Both the position numbers and the translations under genes were made by a program. DNA of 64,000 nt, from contig CM000153.2 in NCBI GenBank assembly GCA_000004695.1, forward strand, positions 2,784,001 through 2,848,000, written 5' to 3'. The notes beneath the pieces were generated by a model that was not told the origin of the DNA, ran no database searches, and saw nothing but the letters and a program-made list of their open reading frames with translations. The stretch is from Dictyostelium discoideum (taxonomy: Eukaryota). Shown one piece after another: positions 6,283-64,000 of the stretch. Each line of letters starts with the position of its first letter. Positions within the stretch are counted from its first letter, which is position 1.

Positions 6283-7622
6283 TCATTTTAATGGTTCTGG
6301 ATTATTAAAATGTGTTTGAAATCTATTAATTAATAAATTATTTGATTTTAATATTCTTGATATAAATGAACCAAAATTTAAATTTGAATTAATTTGAGTT
6401 AAACCATCTTTTGGACCTAGTGATAGACTAATGATTGGTGGTAATAATTTATGTTTTGCAAGTTGGTTTTTATTTTTACCATTTGATAAATCTTTTATAA
6501 CTTTAGCTACTATATTCCCATGTGAAAGTGCATTGTATGTGGTTTTAAGTTCATCAAAATCTGTAATATCACCAATTGCAAATATATTATCGTATCCTTG
6601 AACTTGACAACTTTGATTAACTTTAATTTGACCAATTTCATTAATTTCATTTGAAAAATTAGTTTTATAAGATTCACTATTTAATTTAATACCAATTGTC
6701 CAAATTACAAAATCAGATTCAATTGATAACCCATTTTTAGTTTTATATGTTTTTAATGAAACTTGAAAATTTGGTGATGTTTGATTAATAAAACATTGTT
6801 TTATATCATCTGGAATTTCAATTCTATCATTTAATATAACTGAAACGTTTCTTTTTTTCATAGATTCATTAATTAAATTATTGAATTTATTATTTGTTTT
6901 GGATGATACTAATTTATTACCACTATGAACAATCGTAATTTTCTTTGCCAATTCTTTGTTTTTAATTGGATATTTATTAATAATTTCTCCAACAACTTCA
7001 CAACCTACTGAACCACCCCCAACTATTAATATACTTTTAGCTTGTTTAATTTGTTCTGATATGTCTTTATAGTAATTAAAAATTTCAGTACCTGATATTT
7101 TTTCTAATGGTGCTTTAAAAGGTGCCAATGAATTTGAACCAGTTGCAATTACTAAATAATCAAATGTTAATTCTTTACCATCTTCTAATTTTACAAGAGT
7201 TGGTGAAATTTCAATAACTGTACCATAAATAAATTTACCATTTTTCAATAGTTTATCATATGGTATATATATTTTTTTTGCCAATTCTGGTTCAACTATT
7301 GCTCTTATTGATGCAATACTATTAAAAAATGTTTGTTTTCTTTCAACAACAGTTACTTCAAAATTTGAATCTAATAATTTTGCAACTTGGCTACCTCCAA
7401 AACCACACCCAATTATTAAAACTCTTTTCTTTTCACAATCTCTTGTAATACTACTAAAATAATTAAAAATCTCTATTAATTTAATTAAAATAATATAAAA
7501 AAAAAAAAATTAATTATCTATTTTTTTTTTTTTTTTTTTTTTTTTTATTAATTAAAACAAATTAAATAATTTAAATATATTTTACTTTTTAAAGATTCTG
7601 AAATATTATAAAGGTAATTCAT
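6283..7622 (-). CDS. AIF/AMID-like (AIFM2/FSP1-type) FAD-dependent pyridine-nucleotide-disulfide oxidoreductase, paralog 1. Tentative model join(7622..7586,7472..6283); 5' end uncertain.
   Basis: Colinear with the paralog at 10340..11503 from ..EKKRVLIIGCGFGG (Rossmann GxGxxG) to the C-terminus. The homologous ORF continues above the track's TTG start (7284) to ~7472 with no in-frame ATG, so it needs an upstream exon. The only candidate is ATGAATTACCTT...TTAAAAA|GTAAAA (7622..7586) joined to acceptor TTAATAG|AG at 7474/7473, which preserves frame. It could instead be 5'-truncated. Confidence 0.55.
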
Positions 7623-8178: not shown

Positions 8179-8240
8179 GACAGTTGACGAAGTTTTTCTT
8201 TGAATGTAAGGAAATGTTAGATTTGCTGTAAGGTCAACTT
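8179..8240 (-). ncRNA. Class I RNA-type small ncRNA gene (copy A, ~62 nt)
   Basis: The minus strand reads AGTTGACCTTACAGCAAATCTAACATTTCCTTACATTCAAAGAAAAACTTCGTCAACTGTCC, then TTTTG. It has the 11-nt Class I motif CCTTACAGCAA next to a 5' AGTTGAC / 3' GTCAACT terminal stem. A DUSE-like ACCCAAAA box lies ~86 nt upstream on the same strand. Confidence 0.6.
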
Positions 8241-8325
8241 ATAATGTGATTACTTTTATATTTTTCACATTTTAGTTTTAATAACAAAAAATATAAAATT
8301 GAAAACATAAAAATAAAAAATAGGA

Positions 8326-8333
8326 TTTTGGGT
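8326..8333 (-). promoter_or_regulatory. DUSE-like box (ACCCAAAA) upstream of Class I RNA copy A
   Basis: Matches the Dictyostelium upstream sequence element consensus (A/T)CCCA(C/T)AA with one mismatch; position fits the downstream small RNA gene. Confidence 0.45.
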
Positions 8334-8434
8334 TCCACTTTGTTCTCATTAAATAAAAAATTTGTTTCTTTTTTTTTTTTTTTCAATTTTTTTTTTAAAT
8401 TTTTTTTTTAAAATTTTTTCATTTTTTCCCGAAA

Positions 8435-8442
8435 ACCCATAA
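8435..8442 (+). promoter_or_regulatory. DUSE box (ACCCATAA) ~60 nt upstream of the candidate ncRNA starting ~8500
   Basis: Perfect match to the (A/T)CCCA(C/T)AA consensus. The inverted-repeat arm conserved with the 9145-9312 copy begins at 8500, 58-63 nt downstream. Confidence 0.55.
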
Positions 8443-8499
8443 AAAGTTTTTATCAACCAAAAACTCCATTTTTAATTGAAATTCTAACATATGTTTAAT

Positions 8500-8763
8500 G
8501 GGCATATCAGGACATCGAGTTTAACACCTATTCAGACTCCAGAATACAAATTAATTTGAGCGGCAACGTTCTTATCAATCTGCAATACTCATATCATCTT
8601 AGAGGAATGATTGAAAAATCATAATTCTGATGGAGTACAAAAAATGCTGAGAAGTAACAGCATTAAAATAAACATTTAGACTATAGTTGTGAGTCTTAAA
8701 TTCCAACCAGTCAGTAGTGGCTAAAAATCTACAAAACATAAACTCGATCTGATAACTGAAATG
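8500..8763 (+). ncRNA. Candidate DUSE-driven ncRNA (~260 nt, class unknown)
   Basis: Starts GGGCATATCAGGACATCGAGTTTAAC... at the expected DUSE-to-TSS distance and ends at a T6 run (tgtcttttttatttttt). The 5' segment (catcgagttt) can pair with the 3' segment (aaactcgatc), giving a terminal stem. The first ~140 nt are ~90% identical to the inverted copy at 9145-9312. Confidence 0.4.
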
Positions 8764-9144
8764 TCTTTTTTATTTTTTTTTTATTTTTTTTTTTTAATAA
8801 TGATTACAGTAATGATGTGACAACATCCCTATTTATAAAAACAAAAACAGTATTATATACAACAGATCACCTGTCCTCCCAATAAAAGAAGTTTAAAAAA
8901 AAAAAAAAAAATTATTATAACTATAAACAACATTCGATAGAATATAAAATAATAGTAAATTTGGGTATAAATAACAATAATAATAAATAATATTTACATC
9001 AAATTTAATATTTATTTATTAATTATTAATTAATGTTTATTTTAATATTTAAGCTATTAAAAAAAAAAATAAAAAAATAAAAGAAAAAAAATTATTTAAT
9101 TATTATTTTTTTTTTAAACACTGATTAATCAATGGATATGTGAA

Positions 9145-9312
9145 TAATAAAAATAAAATAAATTTGTCAAATGAGATTATGTTCGGAGCACTGAATCTGG
9201 AATACAGTAAAGTTTGCACCTAATTCCTCTGACGATAGAGGAGTGCAGATTGATAAGAATGTTGCTCAAATTAATTTGTATTCTGGAGTCTGAATAGGTG
9301 TTAAACTCGATG
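9145..9312 (-). ncRNA. Second, inverted copy of the candidate ncRNA (~170 nt; shares the 5' ~140 nt with the 8500 copy, then diverges; ends at T-runs). No DUSE upstream, so possibly a pseudo-copy.
   Basis: The reverse complement of 9228-9312 matches 8500-8583 at ~95%; similarity extends more weakly to ~9200. The 3' terminal ~55 nt recur at 63097-63160. Confidence 0.3.
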
Positions 9313-9449
9313 TCTTGATATGCCCATTTTAAGTATATTTAAAATTAATTTGTTAGTTATCTTATAATTTGATTAACTTTTTATGTGTGTTTAAAAAAAA
9401 AAAAAAAAAGAAGAGAATAAAAAAAAGTTAAATTTTGTTTAACAATCAA

Positions 9450-9457
9450 TCCCAAAA
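9450..9457 (+). promoter_or_regulatory. DUSE box (TCCCAAAA) upstream of Class I-like copy B
   Basis: Consensus match; ~72 nt upstream of AGTTGACC. Confidence 0.45.
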
Positions 9458-9527
9458 ATTATTTTTTGGTTTTTAAATTCTGAAAAAAAACAAATTTTAA
9501 TTTTATTTTAAAATGTGAAAACAATTA

Positions 9528-9579
9528 AGTTGACCTTTAAGCAACTTTCTACATTCAAAGAAATCCTTCACCAACTGTC
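9528..9579 (+). ncRNA. Class I RNA-like gene, copy B (degenerate motif CCTTTAAGCAA; strong T8 terminator)
   Basis: AGTTGACCTTTAAGCAACTTTCTACATTCAAAGAAATCCTTCACCAACTGTC + TTTTTTTT. Colinear with copy A (same internal CATTCAAAGAAA segment) but in the opposite orientation, with a weaker terminal stem. Confidence 0.45.
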
Positions 9580-9774
9580 TTTTTTTTAATTTTATATTAT
9601 TTTTTTTTTTTATTTTTTTTTTTATTAATAACTTTTCCTTTCCATCATCTAATTTTTTGATTTACTTAATGTAAATTTGTGATTCTTGAAGGAAAAAATA
9701 GGATTTTTGGTTATTTAAAAAAAAAAAAAAAAAATCTTAATTATTTTTTTGATAATTTAATAAGAAAATAAAAA

Positions 9775-9915: not shown

Positions 9916-9973
9916 AGTTGACCTTACAGCAAATCTTACAATTTCATCCTAAGAAAAAATACAGTCAACTGTC
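9916..9973 (+). ncRNA. Class I RNA-type small ncRNA gene (copy C, ~58 nt)
   Basis: AGTTGACCTTACAGCAAATCTTACAATTTCATCCTAAGAAAAAATACAGTCAACTGTC + TTTTTTT. Perfect CCTTACAGCAA motif, a 7-bp terminal stem (AGTTGAC/GTCAACT) and a T-run terminator. Confidence 0.65.
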
Positions 9974-10339: not shown

Positions 10340-11503
10340 TTATTGGATTAAAGGTTTTGGATTATTTAATTGAGAAATATAACGATCAATAAATAATGAT
10401 TTTGATTTTATCATTTTTGTAGCAAAAGAACCAAGACACATAGTTGGACTGATTTGAGTTATACCATCTTGAGGACCTAATGAAAGACTAAGTATTGGAC
10501 CTGATACTTTATGTTTTGCAAGCTTATCATTACTTTTACCTTTAGATAAAGCATCGATTGCTTTTGCTGCAATTGCAGCATGATAGCCAGCATTATATGC
10601 TGTTTTAAATTCATCAAAATCTGTACAATCACCAATAGCAAATACATTATTGTATCCTTGAACTTGACAGCTTAAATTTACTTTTAATTGTCCAGACTCA
10701 TTGATTACATTTGAGAAATGTGATTGATATGATTCACTATTTGTTTTAATACCAACTGTCCAAATTATTAAATCTGCTTGAATTGGTACACCCTTTTCAG
10801 TTGTATAATTTTGTGATGATATTTGAATATTTGGTGAAGTTTGATTTAAAAGGTTAGCTTTAATTTCATCTGGCATTGTAATTCTATCATTTAATATGAC
10901 TTCAACATTTCTCTTTTTCATTGCTTTTGAAACGACATTTGTAAATTTATCATTCATTTTTGGATTCACTAATTTACTACCACTGTGAACAATTGTAATT
11001 TTCTTTACCAATTCTGAATCTTTAACTGGATATTTCTCTACGATTTCCGATACCAATTCACAAGCAACTGCACCACCACCAACTATTAATATACTTTTAG
11101 CTTGTTTAATTTGTTGTGAAAAGTTTTGGAAATAATTTAAAATCTCACTACTACTTTTCTTTTCTAATGGTGCTTTAAATGGTGCCAATGAATTTGAACC
11201 AGTTGCAATTACTAAATAATCAAATGTTAATTCTTGACCATCTTCTAATTTTGCAAGAGTTGGTGAAATTTCAATAACCGTGCCAAAAATAAATTTACCA
11301 TTTTTCAATAGCTTATCATATGGTATATAAATCTTTTTAACTAATTCTGGTTCAACAACAGCTCTAACAGATCCAACACTATGGAAAAATGTTTGTTTTC
11401 TTTCAACTACAGTTACATTAAATTTTGAATCTAATTGTTTTGCAACTTCACAACCACCATAACCACCACCAATTATTAATACTCTTTTCTTTTCTGATGT
11501 CAT
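10340..11503 (-). CDS. AIF/AMID-like (AIFM2/FSP1-type) FAD-dependent oxidoreductase, paralog 2, single exon, 387 aa
   Basis: MTSEKKRVLIIGGGYGGCE (FAD GxGxxG), a second dinucleotide motif ILIVGGGAVACE, and the C-terminal AIGDCTDF motif typical of the pyridine-nucleotide-disulfide oxidoreductase/AMID family. This is the intact tandem partner of the 6283 gene. Confidence 0.8.
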   Translation of the reverse strand: MTSEKKRVLIIGGGYGGCEVAKQLDSKFNVTVVERKQTFFHSVGSVRAVVEPELVKKIYIPYDKLLKNGKFIFGTVIEISPTLAKLEDGQELTFDYLVIATGSNSLAPFKAPLEKKSSSEILNYFQNFSQQIKQAKSILIVGGGAVACELVSEIVEKYPVKDSELVKKITIVHSGSKLVNPKMNDKFTNVVSKAMKKRNVEVILNDRITMPDEIKANLLNQTSPNIQISSQNYTTEKGVPIQADLIIWTVGIKTNSESYQSHFSNVINESGQLKVNLSCQVQGYNNVFAIGDCTDFDEFKTAYNAGYHAAIAAKAIDALSKGKSNDKLAKHKVSGPILSLSLGPQDGITQISPTMCLGSFATKMIKSKSLFIDRYISQLNNPKPLIQ

Positions 11504-57023: not shown

Positions 57024-57095
57024 TCCTTGTTGGTCTAGTGGTGAGGATTTTCGCCTGTCACGCGAAAGGCCCGGGTTCAATTCCCGGACAGGGAG
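57024..57095 (+). tRNA. tRNA-Asp (anticodon GUC)
   Basis: TCCTTGTTGGTCTAGTGGTGAGGATTTTCGCCTGTCACGCGAAAGGCCCGGGTTCAATTCCCGGACAGGGAG: cloverleaf with anticodon loop CTGTCAC, T-loop GGTTCAATTCC, 7-bp acceptor stem, discriminator G. Confidence 0.85.
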
Positions 57096-57105
57096 CTTTT
57101 TGAAA

Positions 57106-60100
57106 ACTCACTCGAAATCCGAAGTTCCGGTTTCTAACTTCATTCAAATAAATTTTTAAAAAAATGAATTTTTTCGATAAACTTAAAGGTGAACTCAACT
57201 TAGGCGAAGAAGAGTTAAATAAAAAAACTATTCAAATAAGGTTATTCTACCCACATACCTTGGAATTAAATAGTAATTCAACAAAATTAATAGATAATTT
57301 CATAGTTAATGGTACTCTTAACATTGTCAGAAGACAAAAGGGTATAACAGTATTCGGTAGAATACTAAAAGAAAAATTCACATTATTACACGAGTGTTAC
57401 AGCACTTTCAAGTATGAAGATTTCCCACTGCAAAAATTCATACTTTACACCCCAGGATATCACTATGTCCACTTTTACACATTTATCTGAAAGAAACACC
57501 TTCATAATCAACTCAAAATCTCTGTTTAAAAAATATAATTCAATCAACCATCAAATAATAGCAGGCGACTTCAATAACAACCACGATTGCAACAGCTTCT
57601 TCGGTACTGAATTACGTAAAATAATAGACCAAGACATGCTACTAGATACTGGTATTGAAGAAAACACTCCAACATTTCCAAGATCAATGAAGAGACTAGA
57701 TAGAATCTACTGTCATCCAACACTACTAAACCAAAATTCAAAACTGGTAGTCCACAACACAGTATTTAACAAATCAGATCACTTTCCCATCACAATCACA
57801 ATACAAACCAACAGAGAAACAACAACAACAACAACAACCAAACTAGAAAGACTCCCTTGGACATTATGTAAAGAAATTCTCAACAACAAACATATACATG
57901 ATGGGTTATCAGAATTAATCAGTAAGAACAAAGATAAGATCAAATCAGTGGAGGAATGGACGAAATTTAAAAATAATGTCATCAGAGATTATTTAAAAAA
58001 AGAACAAAACAAAATAAAGAAAGAAAAGAACAAAAGAAAATACGTAATCCACAAATTACTTGGAAATTGTGATATCATTCCAAAGATGAGAAAAGAACTC
58101 AATGAAGAAATAAGTAGAATATTAGAAGAAGAAAGAAAGGTAAAAGCATGGGATATCAAATTAAAACTCCACCTGCATCAAGAAACACCAAGCAAATACC
58201 TCACAAGTATCCTTAAATCCAGAGCCAAAGATAAATCAATATTCCAAATAAAAGATAAAGATAATAAGACCATATCAGATAAAGAGAACATAGCAAAAAG
58301 ATTTGTTGAATTCTATCAAGATCAATATGAAGAGAAAGAAGATAACGAAGAAACCCACAAGAAGTTATTAGAAAAATGGGAAGTAGACGTTGATTTAATC
58401 AAGAAACTCGAGATAGACAGACCGATAAGAATACATGAAGTGACCAAAGCAATCAAAACTTCAAGTATCCACAAATCTCCAGGTTTAGACGGTATCAATG
58501 CACTATTCTACAAGTACCACATCAACTCAATAGCAAGAATATTGACTATAGCTTTCAACGACCTCCTCACAAATAAGAAAGAAATCCCCACAAAATTCAA
58601 AGAAGGAGTAATAACAACAATATTCAAAAAAGGAGATGAACTAAACATTTCAAATAGAAGACCAATCACCCTTCTCAATACAGATTACAAAATTTTAAGC
58701 AAAATTCTCAACAGTAGATTATTAGATATCACCAGTAAAATTATCAACAAATTTCAAAACGGCTTTGTTCCAAACAGGTTCATCCAAGACAATATTCAGA
58801 TCATGAAGGAAGTAATAGAAATAAGTAACAAAAGAAAGAACAATACACTCATTACCTTTTACGATTTTAACAAAGCATTCGATTCAATCAGCCACAAGAG
58901 TATCACAAGAACATTAGAGCATATTGGTATCCCCCCAAAATTCACAGCGATCCTACTAAACCTACTCAAAGATACTAAAAACAAAATAAAGATCAACGAC
59001 TTTTTAGTCAATGGAATAACAATCAGAAGAGGAACAAAACAAGGAGACCCAATATCACCAACAATCTTTGCTCTAGTTTTAGAACCACTTCTAATAGATA
59101 TCATCAATGATAATACAATCAAAGGCTTCACTCTACCAAATTCCAAATCATTAAAACTCACTGCATTTGCTGACGACATAGCAACATTTACAAACTCCAC
59201 TGAAGAACTAATGAAAATTAATACTAAAATCCAAAAGTACTGCTCAGCAACATCATCATCGTTAAACAAAGAGAAAACAGTAATGATAGCAATAGGAGAT
59301 ATACCACACGATCTACCATTCCAAGAGAGTACAGTCCCAGAAAGATATCTTGGCCTCAATTTCACCAAAACAGGTTTAAATTCAAAATACAACACTTTAA
59401 TCCAAGAAATGAAAAACAATCTAATCAAATGGAAATCACAAGCAATAACGATGAAGGCAAAGATGACAATTCTCAAAACATACGTTCTATCCAAATTAAC
59501 ATACCATCAATACATGGATAATCTAAATGAAGAACAAATTGAGGAAATCAATAACATGACCAGATGGTTCTTATTCTCCTCAGTTAAGAATACATATACA
59601 AAAGAGAGAAAATACAAAACTATGATGAAAATAGACAGAGCATATGCAGATTGGAAAGAAGGAGGCATAAAATTATGGGATATAGAACTAAGACATATAG
59701 CATTCAAAATCTGGTACATGAACAGGCTACTCCATAACAACTACAACAACAACAACAATACCTTACAAGAATGGTACATGGAGCAATTAAGTAGAAAAAA
59801 AGCCCACACTTCAACCCTCAACGATATGTGCAGACACTGGGGTGTATTCAGAGTCAAATTTTACCAAAACCATCCAAAGATAAATGAACTTCCAGACTGT
59901 ATAAGAAACGACAATGACGAACCACTAAAACTAAAAGAAATTTACGAACTCATGATCAAAGACAGACACCCAACACCAAGAAGAACAGAATGGCAGAAGT
60001 TATGGGCGGTGAGATACAACACAGCAATACCCAAAGTATTCATAAACATCAACAGCATTTCTCACCAAAAAGGTAGAAACACCCTCTTCAGATTCTTCTC

Positions 60101-60601
60101 AAGATCACTTCCAGGTATCAACCACGAAAGAGACACCAGATGCAAGATCTGTGGCCACCTATTCAGAGACCCTTATTCTCACCTCTTCACTCTATGCCAA
60201 GATATCCTAGATATTGAAAAAACCATCATATCAACAGTTAACAAATTATCATTCATCAAAATCCACAGATGGTCAATGGATACCTTAGACATATCAAAAT
60301 ACAACAGAACTGAGAGAATCTTCCCCAATCTCATAGGAATAATAGCACACCAATTATGGAAGATAATCTGTCACAAATTGTTCAACACTGATGAAAGCAA
60401 ACCAGAGCCAAAATTCGAGCAAAAGGTCATAGAAACAGAATTACTAAATCTCATCGAAACTGAAAAATTCATCACACTAAAGAAAATCAAACACGACGAA
60501 GCAATACTAAAAAACACCAATCAAGATCTTCACAAATACAAATTCAACAAAGCCTGGCAAACCCCAGTAGTTCCGAACCCTCTTCCAATTTAAGTAGTAG
60601 T

Positions 60602-61440: not shown

Positions 61441-61640
61441 ATGCATTTTTTTTTTTTTTTTTTTTTGATATAAATAAACTATTGTAGTATACAATTAGTA
61501 TGTTATTTTTATTTATTTATTTTAGGTTTTTTAGTTTTTGTGAATTTAAAATAGTATGTTATTTTAGATTAGGTAATTAATAATTAATTGGTGGTGTAAT
61601 TGTTGGAATTGGTTCATTTGCGTTTATGCTCCATTCTTTT
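61441..61640 (-). repeat. ~200-bp repeat module ending in an oligo-A tail, directly downstream of the inverted tRNA-Asp copy; second copy at 63601..63800 (~97% identical)
   Basis: 61441-61640 and 63601-63800 are near-identical direct repeats. On the minus strand the module starts next to the tRNA 3' flank (AAAAAAGAATGGAGCATAAACGCAAATGAACC..., resembling the 5' start of the TRE element at 57150) and ends in A17 (plus-strand T-run at 61441-61458). Confidence 0.6.
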
Positions 61641-61702
61641 TTAAATTTTTTGGATGCATTTAGAAAATCGGAACTTCGGATTTGTAGGGATTTTTCAAAA
61701 AG

Positions 61703-61774
61703 CTCCCTGTCCGGGAATTGAACCCGGGCCTTTCGCGTGACAGGCGAAAATCCTCACCACTAGACCAACAAGGA
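61703..61774 (-). tRNA. tRNA-Asp (GUC), second copy in inverted orientation
   Basis: The reverse complement is identical to the 57024-57095 gene. ~30 bp of 5' flank and ~55 bp of 3' flank are also duplicated, and the 5' flank+stem fragment (attcaaaaatatccaataatccttgttggt) occurs a third time at 61850-61880. Confidence 0.85.
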
Positions 61775-62925: not shown

Positions 62926-63096
62926 TGATTTCTCCTTTAAAGGAAATAAACAATAATTAATAGTTTTATTTAGAGATTTTAACTTTATTTTGTAATTCAG
63001 TTTTTCTATTTTGGTTTGAATTTTAAAAAAAGCAATTTAATTTTAAAATAGTGTTGTTGGTTTTGTTATTATTATTATTTATTTATTTTTTTTTAT

Positions 63097-63160
63097 ATGA
63101 ATTGGTCGAATGAGATGAGATTCGGCAGCACTGATTCTGGAATACAATATACTTTGCAAG
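63097..63160 (-). other. Partial third copy of the 3' ~55 nt of the candidate ncRNA at 9145-9312
   Basis: aatgagatgagattcggcagcactgattctggaatacaatatactttgcaag vs 9169-9222 aatgagattatgttcggagcactgaatctggaatacagtaaagtttgca (~80% identity), then diverges. Confidence 0.3.
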
Positions 63161-64000
63161 TTAGTTTTCTTAGTTTGATTATTTGTAAATGGAAATATTT
63201 TGGGTCGTTAAAATTACTTGGATCTTTTGAAAGAGATAATTTTAAGTCTTTTGTTTTTTTTAAATATTCTAGGATTCCTAGTTTGTACCATTTATTAAGT
63301 AAGATCGAGTATGAGAGGTTTTCATCTTTAGACGGTTAATTGCTATAAAATTGCGTCCAGATGTTAACGAAGTATTCTTATTGGAATCTAAGGTTTGTTT
63401 TTTTTTTTTTTTTACCTAAAAGCGGTGTATTGTTATATTTTATTACATTTTTAAATTTTTAGATTTTTAAATTTTTAAATTTTTATATTGTTATATGTTG
63501 ATATTTTTGGTTATATTATGATTACTACTACTTGTTTTTTGAATCTAAGGTTTGTGCATATAGAAACACTAAAAAATTAAAATTTAATTTACCAATTAGA
63601 TTTTTTTTTTTTTTTTTTTGATATAAATAAACTATTGTAGTATACAATTAGTATGTTATTTTTATTTATTTATTTTAGGTTTTTTAGTTTTTGTGAATTT
63701 AAAATAGTATGTTATTTTAGATTAGGTAATTAATAATTAATTGGTGGTGTAATTGTTGGAATTGGTTCATTAGTGTTTATGCTCCATTCTTTTTTAAATT
63801 TTTTGATGGTTTCGGACCATTGGGTTTCTTTTTGAGTTTTTGTGAGGTTGTTTTTAATTGAGAATTGGTTAAAGTTTGATAACCTTCTTGAATATTCCAA
63901 TCTTATTAGCTTGTGCCATTTTGATTTTAATATATCATAATCTAGNNNNNNNNNNNNNNNNNNNNNNNNNNNNNNNNNNNNNNNNNNNNNNNNNNNNNNN

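Follow-up and report, generated by a model that had tools for sequence, protein, structure and literature searches.

The 64,000-nt stretch of Dictyostelium discoideum DNA analysed here (the window) probably contains an independent, conserved gene for a structured non-coding RNA (ncRNA) outside the described families. The shorter copy that faces this gene, designated X, would be a decayed duplicate belonging to a second lineage, lineage B, and is designated X'. This reading is drawn from the sequence of the window and of related genomes: a promoter element at its usual distance, ends that can be recognised, a predicted fold and the way in which substitutions are distributed over it. The features of X are the following, in positions of the window, to which 2,784,000 is added for AX4 chr4.

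8500 to 8771, plus strand: gene X, i.e., a 266-nt RNA body (8500-8765) and the first T6 (AX4 chr4:2,792,500-2,792,771)
8435 to 8442, plus strand: DUSE of gene X, ACCCATAA, an exact match to [AT]CCCA[AT]AA
8500 to 8523, plus strand: 5' strand of the predicted terminal helix (GGGCAU-A-UCAG-GAC-AUCGAGUUUA), pairing with 8739-8766 over 20 bp
8558 to 8571, plus strand: predicted GNRA-tetraloop hairpin GAGCG-GCAA-CGUUC, present in all folds and belonging to the invariant 5' domain
8595 to 8632, plus strand: predicted variable hairpin (nt 96-133 of X), within a block of 76-79% identity (8596-8640)
8739 to 8766, plus strand: 3' strand of the predicted terminal helix, whose last base is the first U of the T-run
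8766 to 8797, plus strand: oligo-T terminator, T6 A T10 A T12, with T6 at 8766-8771

Promoter, ends and predicted fold of X

The consensus of the DUSE and its spacing of about 60 nt to the transcription start are known from previous work (PMC3188802, PMC7919456). X has what characterizes a DUSE-driven ncRNA gene, namely [AT]CCCA[AT]AA about 60 nt upstream of the start. The perfect DUSE at canonical distance reported in the preliminary description is indeed there, 58 nt (from its end) to 65 nt (from its start) upstream of G8500, and the probability of finding a DUSE within 5 nt on either side of this spacing by chance is about 1e-3 (calculated from the 9.7 sites that shuffling leads one to expect in 128 kb of strand). 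This element is conserved in L002 and L003, two of the three D. discoideum-group assemblies in which X was found. The GGG at the 5' end of X is the exact start of homology for X, X' and all orthologues, and the predicted transcript starts with a G.

At the other end, the length of about 260 nt up to a T6 that was initially proposed agrees with the 266-nt body followed by the T6 at 8766-8771. At least six T are found directly 3' of AAUG(U/C)C in 4/4 orthologues, their downstream flanks being different, and the chance of such an adjacency between a T-run and the terminal helix is 0.04-0.07. X on the plus strand and X' on the other strand are the longest TTTT-free stretches of the intergenic spacer; considering the composition of X itself, the absence of TTTT from X has no significance (P=0.3-0.5). 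X also forms an island of 31-33% GC in a surrounding spacer of 6-20% GC. It includes no ORF longer than 46 aa, and the 46-aa antisense pseudo-ORF has no exact product on record.

Transcription of X would start at G8500, about 60 nt past the DUSE, and stop in the oligo-T right after the last base pair. Pol II genes as well as Pol III genes make use of the DUSE (Kjellin 2021). Since it serves Pol II genes too, it is the T-run, and not the promoter element, that points to RNA polymerase III as the enzyme transcribing X. The recruitment of Pol II by the DUSE for U1, U2, U4 and U5 leads to another reading, according to which X would be a Pol II-transcribed RNA of the Sm-class snRNA type, with AAUUUGA (nt 54-60) as Sm site and a processed 3' end. 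A match to RAU3-6GR does lie in the invariant 5' domain of X and is also found in X' and in the L006 copy. However, it is a single formal RAU3GR match, of a kind seen in 14% of shuffles (chance P=0.14). It is partly paired in every predicted fold and is located in the 5' quarter of X, away from the 3' end. Furthermore, all the orthologues have retained the T-run that follows the terminal helix, and no Rfam model of U1, U2, U4, U5 or U6 matches X. An Sm-class RNA is unlikely on this evidence.

The fold predicted for the whole of X has a minimum free energy of -62.7 kcal/mol (z=-4.4). The pairing of the 5' and 3' ends of the plus arm, which had been noticed at the outset, turns out to be longer than claimed: the terminal helix comprises 20 bp in three segments, its duplex energy is -20.8 kcal/mol and only 1/5000 random window segments are as good. 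Inside this helix, the predicted fold includes six hairpins. The 5' strand of the helix shows two substitutions among four sequences, both of them neutral for pairing (C-G to U-G and G-U to G-C). The GNRA loop reads GAAA in L006 and GCAA in the three other sequences. As for the variable hairpin, its sequence is hypervariable and 91% of its cells are still paired, with exchanges between G-U and G-C and between A-U and G-U.

Over the four-sequence alignment of X, 97.7% of the cells are paired, in a fold derived from the same four sequences that serve to judge it. Outside the variable hairpin, 2/116 paired columns vary versus 16/95 unpaired ones (Fisher p=9e-5), and both varying paired columns keep their pair. 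No double compensatory substitution is found among the 78 pairs of these four sequences. The support for the fold thus comes from its energy and from the placement of the substitutions, and the covariation analysis gives it no statistical support beyond conservation. One internal helix (87-91/134-138) is lost in L006, for which RNAalifold then offers another long-range helix.

The 266-nt RNA would be closed by its 20-bp 5'/3' helix, which would enclose the invariant 5' domain (with the 8-nt loop AGACUCCA and the GNRA hairpin), the hypervariable hairpin, an invariant hairpin at nt 144-165 and a 3' domain. The terminal helix and the 3' oligo-U would shield the ends of X, and the invariant 5' domain could act as a recognition surface. 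The weakest step of this scheme is the last one, in which X would be a stable RNA with a structural or scaffold role in a ribonucleoprotein. By analogy with other RNAs, the best guess is that X may be a scaffold RNA of Pol III type.

Conservation of X and history of the facing arm

Full-length X is present as one copy in each of the D. discoideum-group assemblies L002, L003 and L006, with 88-94% identity. Between AX4 and L002/L003, nt 1-96 are 99% identical and the 3' 125 nt are 95-97% identical, versus about 79% (90% ignoring gaps) for the spacer beside X in the same comparison. An nhmmer search with the X alignment over all the loci and the window (about 190 kb of D. discoideum-group DNA) gave no further copies. 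The syntenic spacer of D. citrinum and that of D. dimigraforme, the region looked at in these species, lack X, and homologues were found only within the D. discoideum group. Scans of metagenomes with invariant 20-mers of X gave first no match, then five chance matches confined to the 20-mer, in contigs of 42-44% GC.

It could be argued that X is dead or was never functional, its similarity between genomes resulting from a short divergence or from gene conversion between lineages A and B. All the homologues do come from one species complex, covariation is lacking and the L006 copy, whose body is well kept, has no recognisable DUSE, which is awkward if this element is essential. However, the bodies of lineage-A and lineage-B X are 88% identical whereas their promoters can barely be aligned, and substitutions are strongly biased to unpaired positions. 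In addition, the perfect DUSE, its spacing, the G start and the terminator are retained in lineage A, and X', which is truly decaying, looks different (mutated DUSE, indels, truncation). A dead X is thus quite improbable compared with a conserved gene.

The elements involved in the history of X' are listed below.

8181 to 8238, minus strand: Class I RNA r56 (DDB_G0295595), divergent partner of X (RF01414, 55.5 bits; Kjellin 2021 supplement)
9158 to 9222, minus strand: 3' part of X', a Y-type body (82% identity to 63158-63097 of the minus strand; likeness to Y of L006 by eye)
9223 to 9325, minus strand: 5' part of X', a copy of X nt 1-108 (90% identity; nhmmer E=8e-26, model 1-122)
9381 to 9388, minus strand: degenerate DUSE of X', ACACATAA, with one mismatch that breaks the CCC core
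9529 to 9577, plus strand: Class I RNA r57 (DDB_G0295597), divergent partner of X' (Kjellin 2021 supplement)
63090 to 63205, minus strand: second Y copy, with DUSE ACCCAAAA at 63205-63198 and a body from about 63147

The two arms correspond to 8500-8608 (plus strand) and 9325-9223 (minus strand), with about 615 bp between them (blastn E=9e-37). In their first 84 nt they agree at 79/84 positions (94%, a 3-nt deletion being counted), and in the shared part as a whole at 98/109 (90%). The preliminary description was right about an identity of about 95%, but it set the minus arm 13 nt short of its GGG start (9325-9323). It also extended the similarity to about 140 nt, which is too far as it stops around nt 108-122 (nhmmer), and stated that the minus copy lacks a DUSE, while a DUSE with one mismatch is found at 9388-9381. 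This degenerate element occupies the position homologous to that of the X DUSE, and the AAAGTT downstream is common to both. Neither X', with ACACATAA, nor the L006 copy of X has an exact [AT]CCCA[AT]AA upstream of its start; when a correctly placed DUSE is missing, Class I genes are reported not to be expressed (Kjellin 2021).

Other features of X' also depart from those of X. Its GNRA hairpin is gone, owing to a CGG deletion and a G>A change, and its fold is no better than that of shuffles (z=-1.2). The junction between the X(1-108) part and the Y part reads AGAGGAATTA / AAGAAATTAA, and the first T4/T5 runs after X' are found at about 9160-9150. The recurrence of a fragment near 63.1 kb, which had been noticed initially, is real (9158-9218 versus 63097-63158, 82% over 62 nt). 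Moreover, X is followed in L006 by a spacer, a DUSE and Y, and the entire stretch 63360-63090 shows homology to this series. A likeness of X' to U2 stem IIa/IIb (UCCUCUAUC...GAGGA), seen by eye, is absent from X and from the Rfam U2 model.

X is flanked by the Class I genes r56, r57 and r32. Upstream of r56 are found a TGTG box (8266-8272) and the DUSE ACCCAAAA (8326-8333), and upstream of r57 the DUSE TCCCAAAA (9450-9457) and a TGTG box (9511-9517). The motif of r57 is degenerate (CCUUUAAGCAA) and this gene has no Rfam match at E<=1; its position is colinear with that of the Class I gene in the L006 unit. A Class I gene and X are arranged divergently, their DUSEs lying back to back, and this unit, which spans about 450 bp, is conserved. 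Only unit A is found in L002 and L003, and only unit B in L006, where full-length X is followed by Y. In the alignment of the units, AX4 unit B groups with L006 and AX4 unit A with L002.

This distribution is consistent with a history in which X' would be the remnant of an older paralogous unit made of a Class I gene and X, i.e., lineage B (r57 and X'). In D. cf. discoideum, lineage B would still have a full-length X, with the DUSE gene Y about 220 nt further on. In the AX4 copy of lineage B, the DUSE core would have changed from CCC to CAC and the GNRA hairpin would have been lost. A microhomology deletion of about 450 bp would then have removed a segment beginning at X nt 109 and ending shortly before Y, leaving an X(1-108)::Y chimera, and the 63.1-kb fragment would be the other Y copy. 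The initial suspicion that the minus copy is a pseudo-copy or a variant fits well with this mutated DUSE and with the fusion, by deletion, of the 5' 108 nt to a small and unrelated DUSE gene. Judged on its sequence, the minus arm X' is a broken, chimeric old duplicate and not a second working gene.

The description of the locus as an inverted pair of genes should be corrected accordingly in part: both arms are real, but their pairing was overstated as L002, L003 and L006 have one copy each. The presence of a single copy in each of them indicates that the inverted arrangement is peculiar to the AX4 haplotype and does not represent the functional unit. It is very improbable that the two arms cooperate, i.e., that through read-through or convergent transcription they give an RNA hairpin or dsRNA of about 830 nt, with a 108-bp stem, that would be diced into small RNAs. 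In favour of this, the arms show about 90% complementarity and lie opposite each other at a distance of about 615 bp. Against this, X is intact in each of the genomes with one arm only, strong T-runs follow both arms and the X' promoter is mutated. Furthermore, conservation spans the whole 266-nt X, beyond the shared 108 nt, and the supplement of the DrnB study has no miRNA at these coordinates.

In the same way, the arms are almost certainly not the terminal inverted repeats (TIRs) of a DNA transposon, which would be non-autonomous and measure about 830 bp, even though they are inverted copies of about 108 nt and the similarity starts at their outer ends. L002 and L003 lack 8782-9581, yet carry arm 1 at the same site within a full-length, promoter-bearing X, and in L006 the other arm is part of a full-length X. 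Unlike what is expected of a TIR element, similarity runs outward from both arms into promoters and Class I genes, and no further copies exist in the 190 kb searched. The refutation test given in the preliminary description, that of a transposon, is thus negative, the orthologous sites keeping the single arm as a whole gene. Compared with these two readings, the inverted pair looks like a by-product of duplication rather than a functional device. If X is expressed, the conserved association of a Class I gene with X suggests that such divergent units duplicate and decay as modules.

Family tests and comparison with known systems

Rfam was searched at the gathering threshold for the window, and with E<=10 for 8400-9400 and for X by itself. 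No match to X better than E=1.3 was obtained, and those found are chance ones (RAGATH-17, PVT1, snoU13 antisense, psRNA6). The snoRNA, MRP or SRP-like classes put forward initially do not hold, as shown by this best E value of 1.3 and by the lack of a RUGAUGA box and of a 3' ACA. The look-alikes of U2, U6 and 7SL had been considered to be at chance level, and they are indeed 10-11-mers that no model supports.

Several families were considered individually. X is not a Class I RNA: it has no RF01414 match at E<=10, the best occurrence of CCUUACAGCAA has 3 mismatches and its length is 266 nt. No model match was found for SRP RNA, including Dictyostelium_SRP, and the predicted fold has no pair of S-domain helix 8 and helix 6. 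There is no model match either for RNase MRP or RNase P, and the D. discoideum MRP RNA, with its P3c helix, has already been described elsewhere. As for box C/D snoRNAs, including the U3, U8 and U13 types, AX4 X has no RTGATGA; GUGAUGA is found only in L002 X, within the variable hairpin, and the snoU13 match (11 bits, E=6) is on the wrong strand. For telomerase RNA, whose template should be complementary to at least 1.3 telomere repeats, the longest template-sense match of X to GGGGAGAGACA, which is the D. firmibasis repeat and not that of D. discoideum itself, is 5 nt, and a 7-nt match to the 21-mer telomere repeat is only CAAAAAA.

X is not included in the supplement tables for Class I RNAs (Kjellin 2021), snoRNAs (Diesend 2022) or miRNAs (DrnB study). 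A literature string search with 17-20-mers of X gave no match, and nothing usable was found in the literature on Dictyostelium telomerase RNA or vault RNA. As a separate observation on this region, the numbering of the lncRNA ids CUFF_3502-3505 (Rosengarten 2017) puts them between 2.786 and 2.796 Mb of chr4.

Two more specific proposals, tentative and rather unlikely as they stand, are that X represents a new dictyostelid class of Pol III type inherited with Class I genes as a divergent pair, or that it provides the RNA of a conserved particle, such as a vault-, Ro- or 7SK-type RNP. The panhandle and the variable centre of X fit with either of them. To our knowledge, no RNA has been assigned to such conserved particles in Dictyostelium.

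In the model organism D. discoideum, most of the ncRNA catalogue comes from libraries of size-selected short RNAs and from homology of the Rfam type. An RNA of 266 nt without family would escape both routes. If X is expressed, a mid-size structured RNA joins the DUSE regulon, and a second type of gene becomes available beside Class I for studying the role of the DUSE and its spacing in transcription. It would also provide a natural inactivation series composed of a gene that is intact, a copy whose promoter is deleted and a truncated chimera whose promoter is mutated. Besides, the modular duplication and decay of units made of Class I genes and X would be relevant to how rapidly Class I loci turn over from one species to another. 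Without expression of X, the locus would nevertheless illustrate clearly how duplication and deletion yield an inverted repeat that looks designed.

Various known systems can be compared with X. In AT-rich protists, RNAs of unknown function such as the Plasmodium RUFs are GC-richer, structured and conserved islands that belong to no family; X differs from them by its dedicated promoter element and its defined ends, and no relationship is implied. Like the animal vault RNA, Y RNA, 7SK and RMRP, X has an upstream-only promoter, a G start and an oligo-U 3' end. It also resembles animal panhandle RNAs by its paired ends, long stem and variable centre, and its size is near those of RMRP and 7SK. 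This is an analogy only, as X has no Ro-binding helix, GAUC-GAUC, CR-I/CR-V or model match. The upstream element and its distance are the same in X and in the U1, U2, U4, U5 and U6 genes of D. discoideum, whereas there is no match in sequence or structure; U6 ends in a T-run, as X does.

The closest parallels are with the Class I RNAs (RF01414). X is much longer than these RNAs (266 versus 42-65 nt), has a longer helix (20 versus about 5 bp) and has neither a TGTG box nor a match to their covariance model. However, they share a DUSE at about -60, a G start, a terminal stem, a variable interior and an end in a T-run. Both are restricted to dictyostelids, and X stands next to a Class I gene in the conserved divergent unit.

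Setting, promoter and ends of X

The candidate ncRNA gene X and its facing minus-strand copy X' lie within a 2.9-kb spacer separating two tandem AIF-like oxidoreductase paralogues. Kjellin et al. 2021 (PMC7919456) list in their supplement the Class I RNA genes r56, r57 and r32 of D. discoideum AX4 chromosome 4; by these coordinates the window-to-chr4 offset is exactly +2,784,000.

Features of the locus (window positions unless stated)
~6283-7450, minus: AIF-like oxidoreductase paralogue DDB_G0285003
8181-8238, minus: Class I RNA Rfam match flanking the X/X' pair
chr4 2,792,181-2,792,238, minus: r56 (PMC7919456 supplement)
8435-8442, plus: perfect DUSE of X, ACCCATAA, 58-65 nt upstream of G8500
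chr4 2,793,529-2,793,577, plus: r57 (PMC7919456 supplement)
9917-9971, plus: Class I RNA Rfam match flanking the X/X' pair
chr4 2,793,917-2,793,971, plus: r32 (PMC7919456 supplement)
10340-11503, minus: AIF-like oxidoreductase paralogue, 387 aa
63090-63205, minus (L006 7094-7200, plus): candidate gene Y, with DUSE and conserved core

Many Dictyostelium ncRNA genes carry a DUSE ([AT]CCCA[AT]AA) some 60 nt upstream (PMC7919456, PMC3188802). Shuffled sequence is expected to hold 9.7 sites per 128 kb of strand, from which the chance that one falls within +/-5 nt of this spacing is calculated as about 1e-3. The 266-nt body of X ends in T6-A-T10-A-T12 and no ORF >46 aa was found in it. X and X' are islands of 31-33% GC amid a 6-20% GC spacer (21.7% for the window overall), each being the longest TTTT-free stretch of the spacer on its own strand.

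Syntenic DNA was retrieved via the flanking AIF protein. Two loci from D. discoideum-group assemblies (L002 and L003) each have one complete X, preceded by a perfect DUSE and closed by a T16 terminator, in the order r56-type Class I gene, X, r32-type Class I gene; 175 unrelated bases stand there in place of window 8782-9581, i.e., X', r57 and their promoters. The D. cf. discoideum locus L006 also carries a single full-length X (88% identical, T8 terminator), which matches X' in orientation and position, unlike X. No X was found between the AIF genes of D. citrinum and D. dimigraforme (390-600 bp); among the species compared at this syntenic locus, X is thus confined to the D. discoideum species group.

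The genes bordering the ncRNA cluster, 6283-7450(-) and 10340-11503(-), are tandem paralogues of AIF/ferroptosis-suppressor-like FAD oxidoreductases. In D. citrinum and D. dimigraforme their spacer measures 390-600 bp; in the D. discoideum group it spans 2-5 kb, occupied by ncRNA genes. The L006 copy of X has no DUSE despite its well-kept body and T8 terminator: in L006 6540-6610 the region from DUSE to -30 is deleted, and an octamer, TCCGAATT, lies exactly at -60. This copy is either an unusual promoter variant or a recently dead copy. On the same D. cf. discoideum contig (JBTAPI010000007.1), a second locus, L005, lies 1.8 Mb from L006 with the same order of AIF gene, Class I gene and gene of ~166-167 aa (small genes matched by size and order); only one of these two places retains X.

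Fold and constraint

The pairing of both ends of X, first noticed by eye, is part of a 20-bp terminal helix in three segments (nt 1-24 with nt 240-267). The energy of this duplex, -20.8 kcal/mol, is equalled by 1/5000 random window segments, and the whole-RNA fold has a z of -4.4. Besides the terminal helix, consensus folds of three and of four sequences both retain hairpins at nt 30-47, nt 48-83 (including its GNRA loop), nt 144-165 and nt 180-213, with standard pairs in 97.7% of cells.

Identity of AX4 to L002/L003, by region
X nt 1-96: 99%
X 3' 125 nt: 95-97%
X promoter: 92-97%, without indels
Block 8596-8640, variable hairpin of X: 76-79%
Class I gene r56: 98-100%
Spacer around X: ~79% (90% without counting gaps)

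Substitutions in X avoid helices: outside the variable region, 2/116 paired columns vary versus 16/95 unpaired ones (Fisher p=9e-5, the fold being derived from the same sequences as used in this test). Both varying paired columns still pair (C-G to U-G, G-U to G-C), the tetraloop changes from GCAA to GAAA, and the variable hairpin has undergone many base changes, yet is 91% paired. The internal helix 87-91/134-138 is absent in L006. No pair has changed on both sides, so covariation proof is absent. A non-functional relic is an unlikely reading of X.

The segment UGGAGU(A) of X has two candidate partners: UACUC, with which the MFE fold pairs it, and ACUCCA (6 bp), the loop of an invariant hairpin; the segments concerned are window 8536-8541, 8586-8590 and 8631-8637 (X nt 37-42, 87-91 and 132-138). 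Judging from these complementarities, an alternative conformation or a pseudoknot is possible. The X of L006 has neither pairing option.

Origin of the inverted pair

Over the first 84 nt, the plus arm (8500-8608) matches the reverse-complemented 9223-9325 at 94% identity; extending the comparison to 109 nt lowers this to 90% (blastn E=9e-37). The similarity begins exactly at GGGCAUAUCA in both and ends at about nt 108-122; thus the ~95% start given in the preliminary description holds, while its ~140-nt extent has to be shortened.

X' consists of a copy of X nt 1-108 that runs straight into a Y-type body (9222-9158). In L006, X is followed first by a ~220-nt spacer, then by a DUSE (TCCCAAAC, 7094-7101) and the short body of Y. 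The whole of this stretch has a homologous counterpart in the window, 63360-63090(-), with a DUSE of its own (63205-63198); the recurrence previously noted at 63.1 kb thus proves to belong to a longer homologous stretch. At the junction, X reads AGAGGAAUUA where the Y leader reads AAGAAAUUAA. Together with the L006 arrangement, this indicates that a ~450 bp deletion removed X nt 109-266 together with its terminator, the spacer and the promoter of Y. X' has ACACATAA, not a DUSE, at the DUSE site, has lost the GNRA hairpin (CGG deletion and G>A) and has a fold no more stable than those of shuffled sequences (z=-1.2). The minus arm, earlier considered a pseudo-copy or variant, combines a mutated DUSE, a lost hairpin and a chimeric join with Y. 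Its partner r57 has a degenerate motif and counts as a weak Class I gene.

Alignment of four ~450-nt units reveals a common module, in which a Class I gene preceded by a TGTG box and a DUSE stands back to back with a DUSE followed by X. AX4 unit A (r56 and X) clusters with L002 and L003, and unit B (r57 and X') with the L006 unit, on the basis of shared spacer sequence, C88, orientation and position beside the 387-aa AIF gene. This grouping indicates that A and B are old paralogues, differentially lost.

The preliminary description had considered arms that are terminal inverted repeats of a DNA transposon as a danger to its own reading. This was checked and is ruled out, the chance being negligible, by the orthologous sites, which retain one arm as a complete gene. 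For the same reason a function needing both arms fails, and a hairpin small-RNA locus made of X and X' is very improbable.

Several observations concern the neighbourhood of these units. The annotated Class I RNA r57 (DDB_G0295597, 9529-9577(+)) has a mutated 11-nt motif (CCUUUAAGCAA); relative to r56, its 3' stem is weaker and part of its interior is deleted; no Rfam Class I match was found for it even at E<=1, and it may be decaying like its partner X'. Upstream of r32, AAAATAGGATTTTTGGTTATT (9697-9718) is similar to AAAATAGGATTTTGGGTTCC (8319-8338), which is the DUSE region of r56 in antisense. This likeness suggests that the bidirectional promoter module is present here a third time, in degenerate form, and that such units have duplicated repeatedly. 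The DUSE of Y is ACCCAAAA in AX4 and TCCCAAAC in D. cf. discoideum, followed after ~55-60 nt by a conserved core, CCAGAAUCAGUGCU...GAAU...UCUC...ACCAAU; no nearby T-run was found for AX4 Y. For Y, Rfam yields only a sub-threshold match, on the opposite (+) strand, to the archaeal C/D sRNA sR33 (21.6 bits, E=0.016); L006 does not conserve it. A 205-bp direct duplication (63601-63805 = 61448-61652, 99% identical) flanks the Y locus and a tRNA (61703-61774, -). Just downstream of another tRNA (57024-57095), a 1059-aa ORF (57414-60593) is read from its sequence as reverse-transcriptase-type, the element being a putative tRNA-associated retroelement, presumably TRE-like.

Class and likely mode of action

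X has no match in Rfam 15 at gathering thresholds, nor does 1 kb around it at E<=10; X alone gives four chance matches (E 1.3-6). X thus fits no Class I, U1/U2/U4/U5/U6, U3, SRP (including a Dictyostelium-specific model) or RNase P/MRP model. The 10-11-mers recalling U2, U6 and 7SL, already called chance-level, receive no backing from these models, and the snoRNA, MRP or SRP-like classes suggested earlier find no support; the D. discoideum MRP RNA is already in the literature. C box, 3' ACA and Class I motif are all absent from X, as is a template for the telomere repeats known from D. firmibasis. X is absent from the Class I, snoRNA and miRNA loci of the published supplements compared, and a string search of the papers covered did not find its sequence; an annotation elsewhere may already exist.

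With a promoter element, its spacing, defined ends, a stable closed fold, a purifying pattern and no family, X is quite probably a real, independent structured ncRNA gene. Both polymerases use DUSE (PMC7919456). Pol III would transcribe X, because the T-run directly follows the helix and is kept in four genomes; the helix and the 3' oligo-U would protect the ends of an RNA acting as a scaffold. A Pol III scaffold RNA is only tentatively proposed as its mode of action. A Pol II Sm-class RNA, also compatible with a DUSE, appears rather unlikely; the single Sm-like heptamer of X is partly paired and at chance level (P=0.14).

The original observation stands and tells more than its first description did, though it is not extraordinary: the locus is an orphan ncRNA gene candidate with a decaying chimeric paralogue and an evolutionary account of the inverted repeat. 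X is filed as a DUSE-regulon ncRNA gene without RNA family. The other DUSE-driven genes are closest to it in working. Among them, Class I RNAs are alike in gene architecture, whereas X departs from them in length, motif and model. In design, X also recalls panhandle RNAs made by Pol III in animals (vault, Y, 7SK, RMRP), a likeness by analogy.
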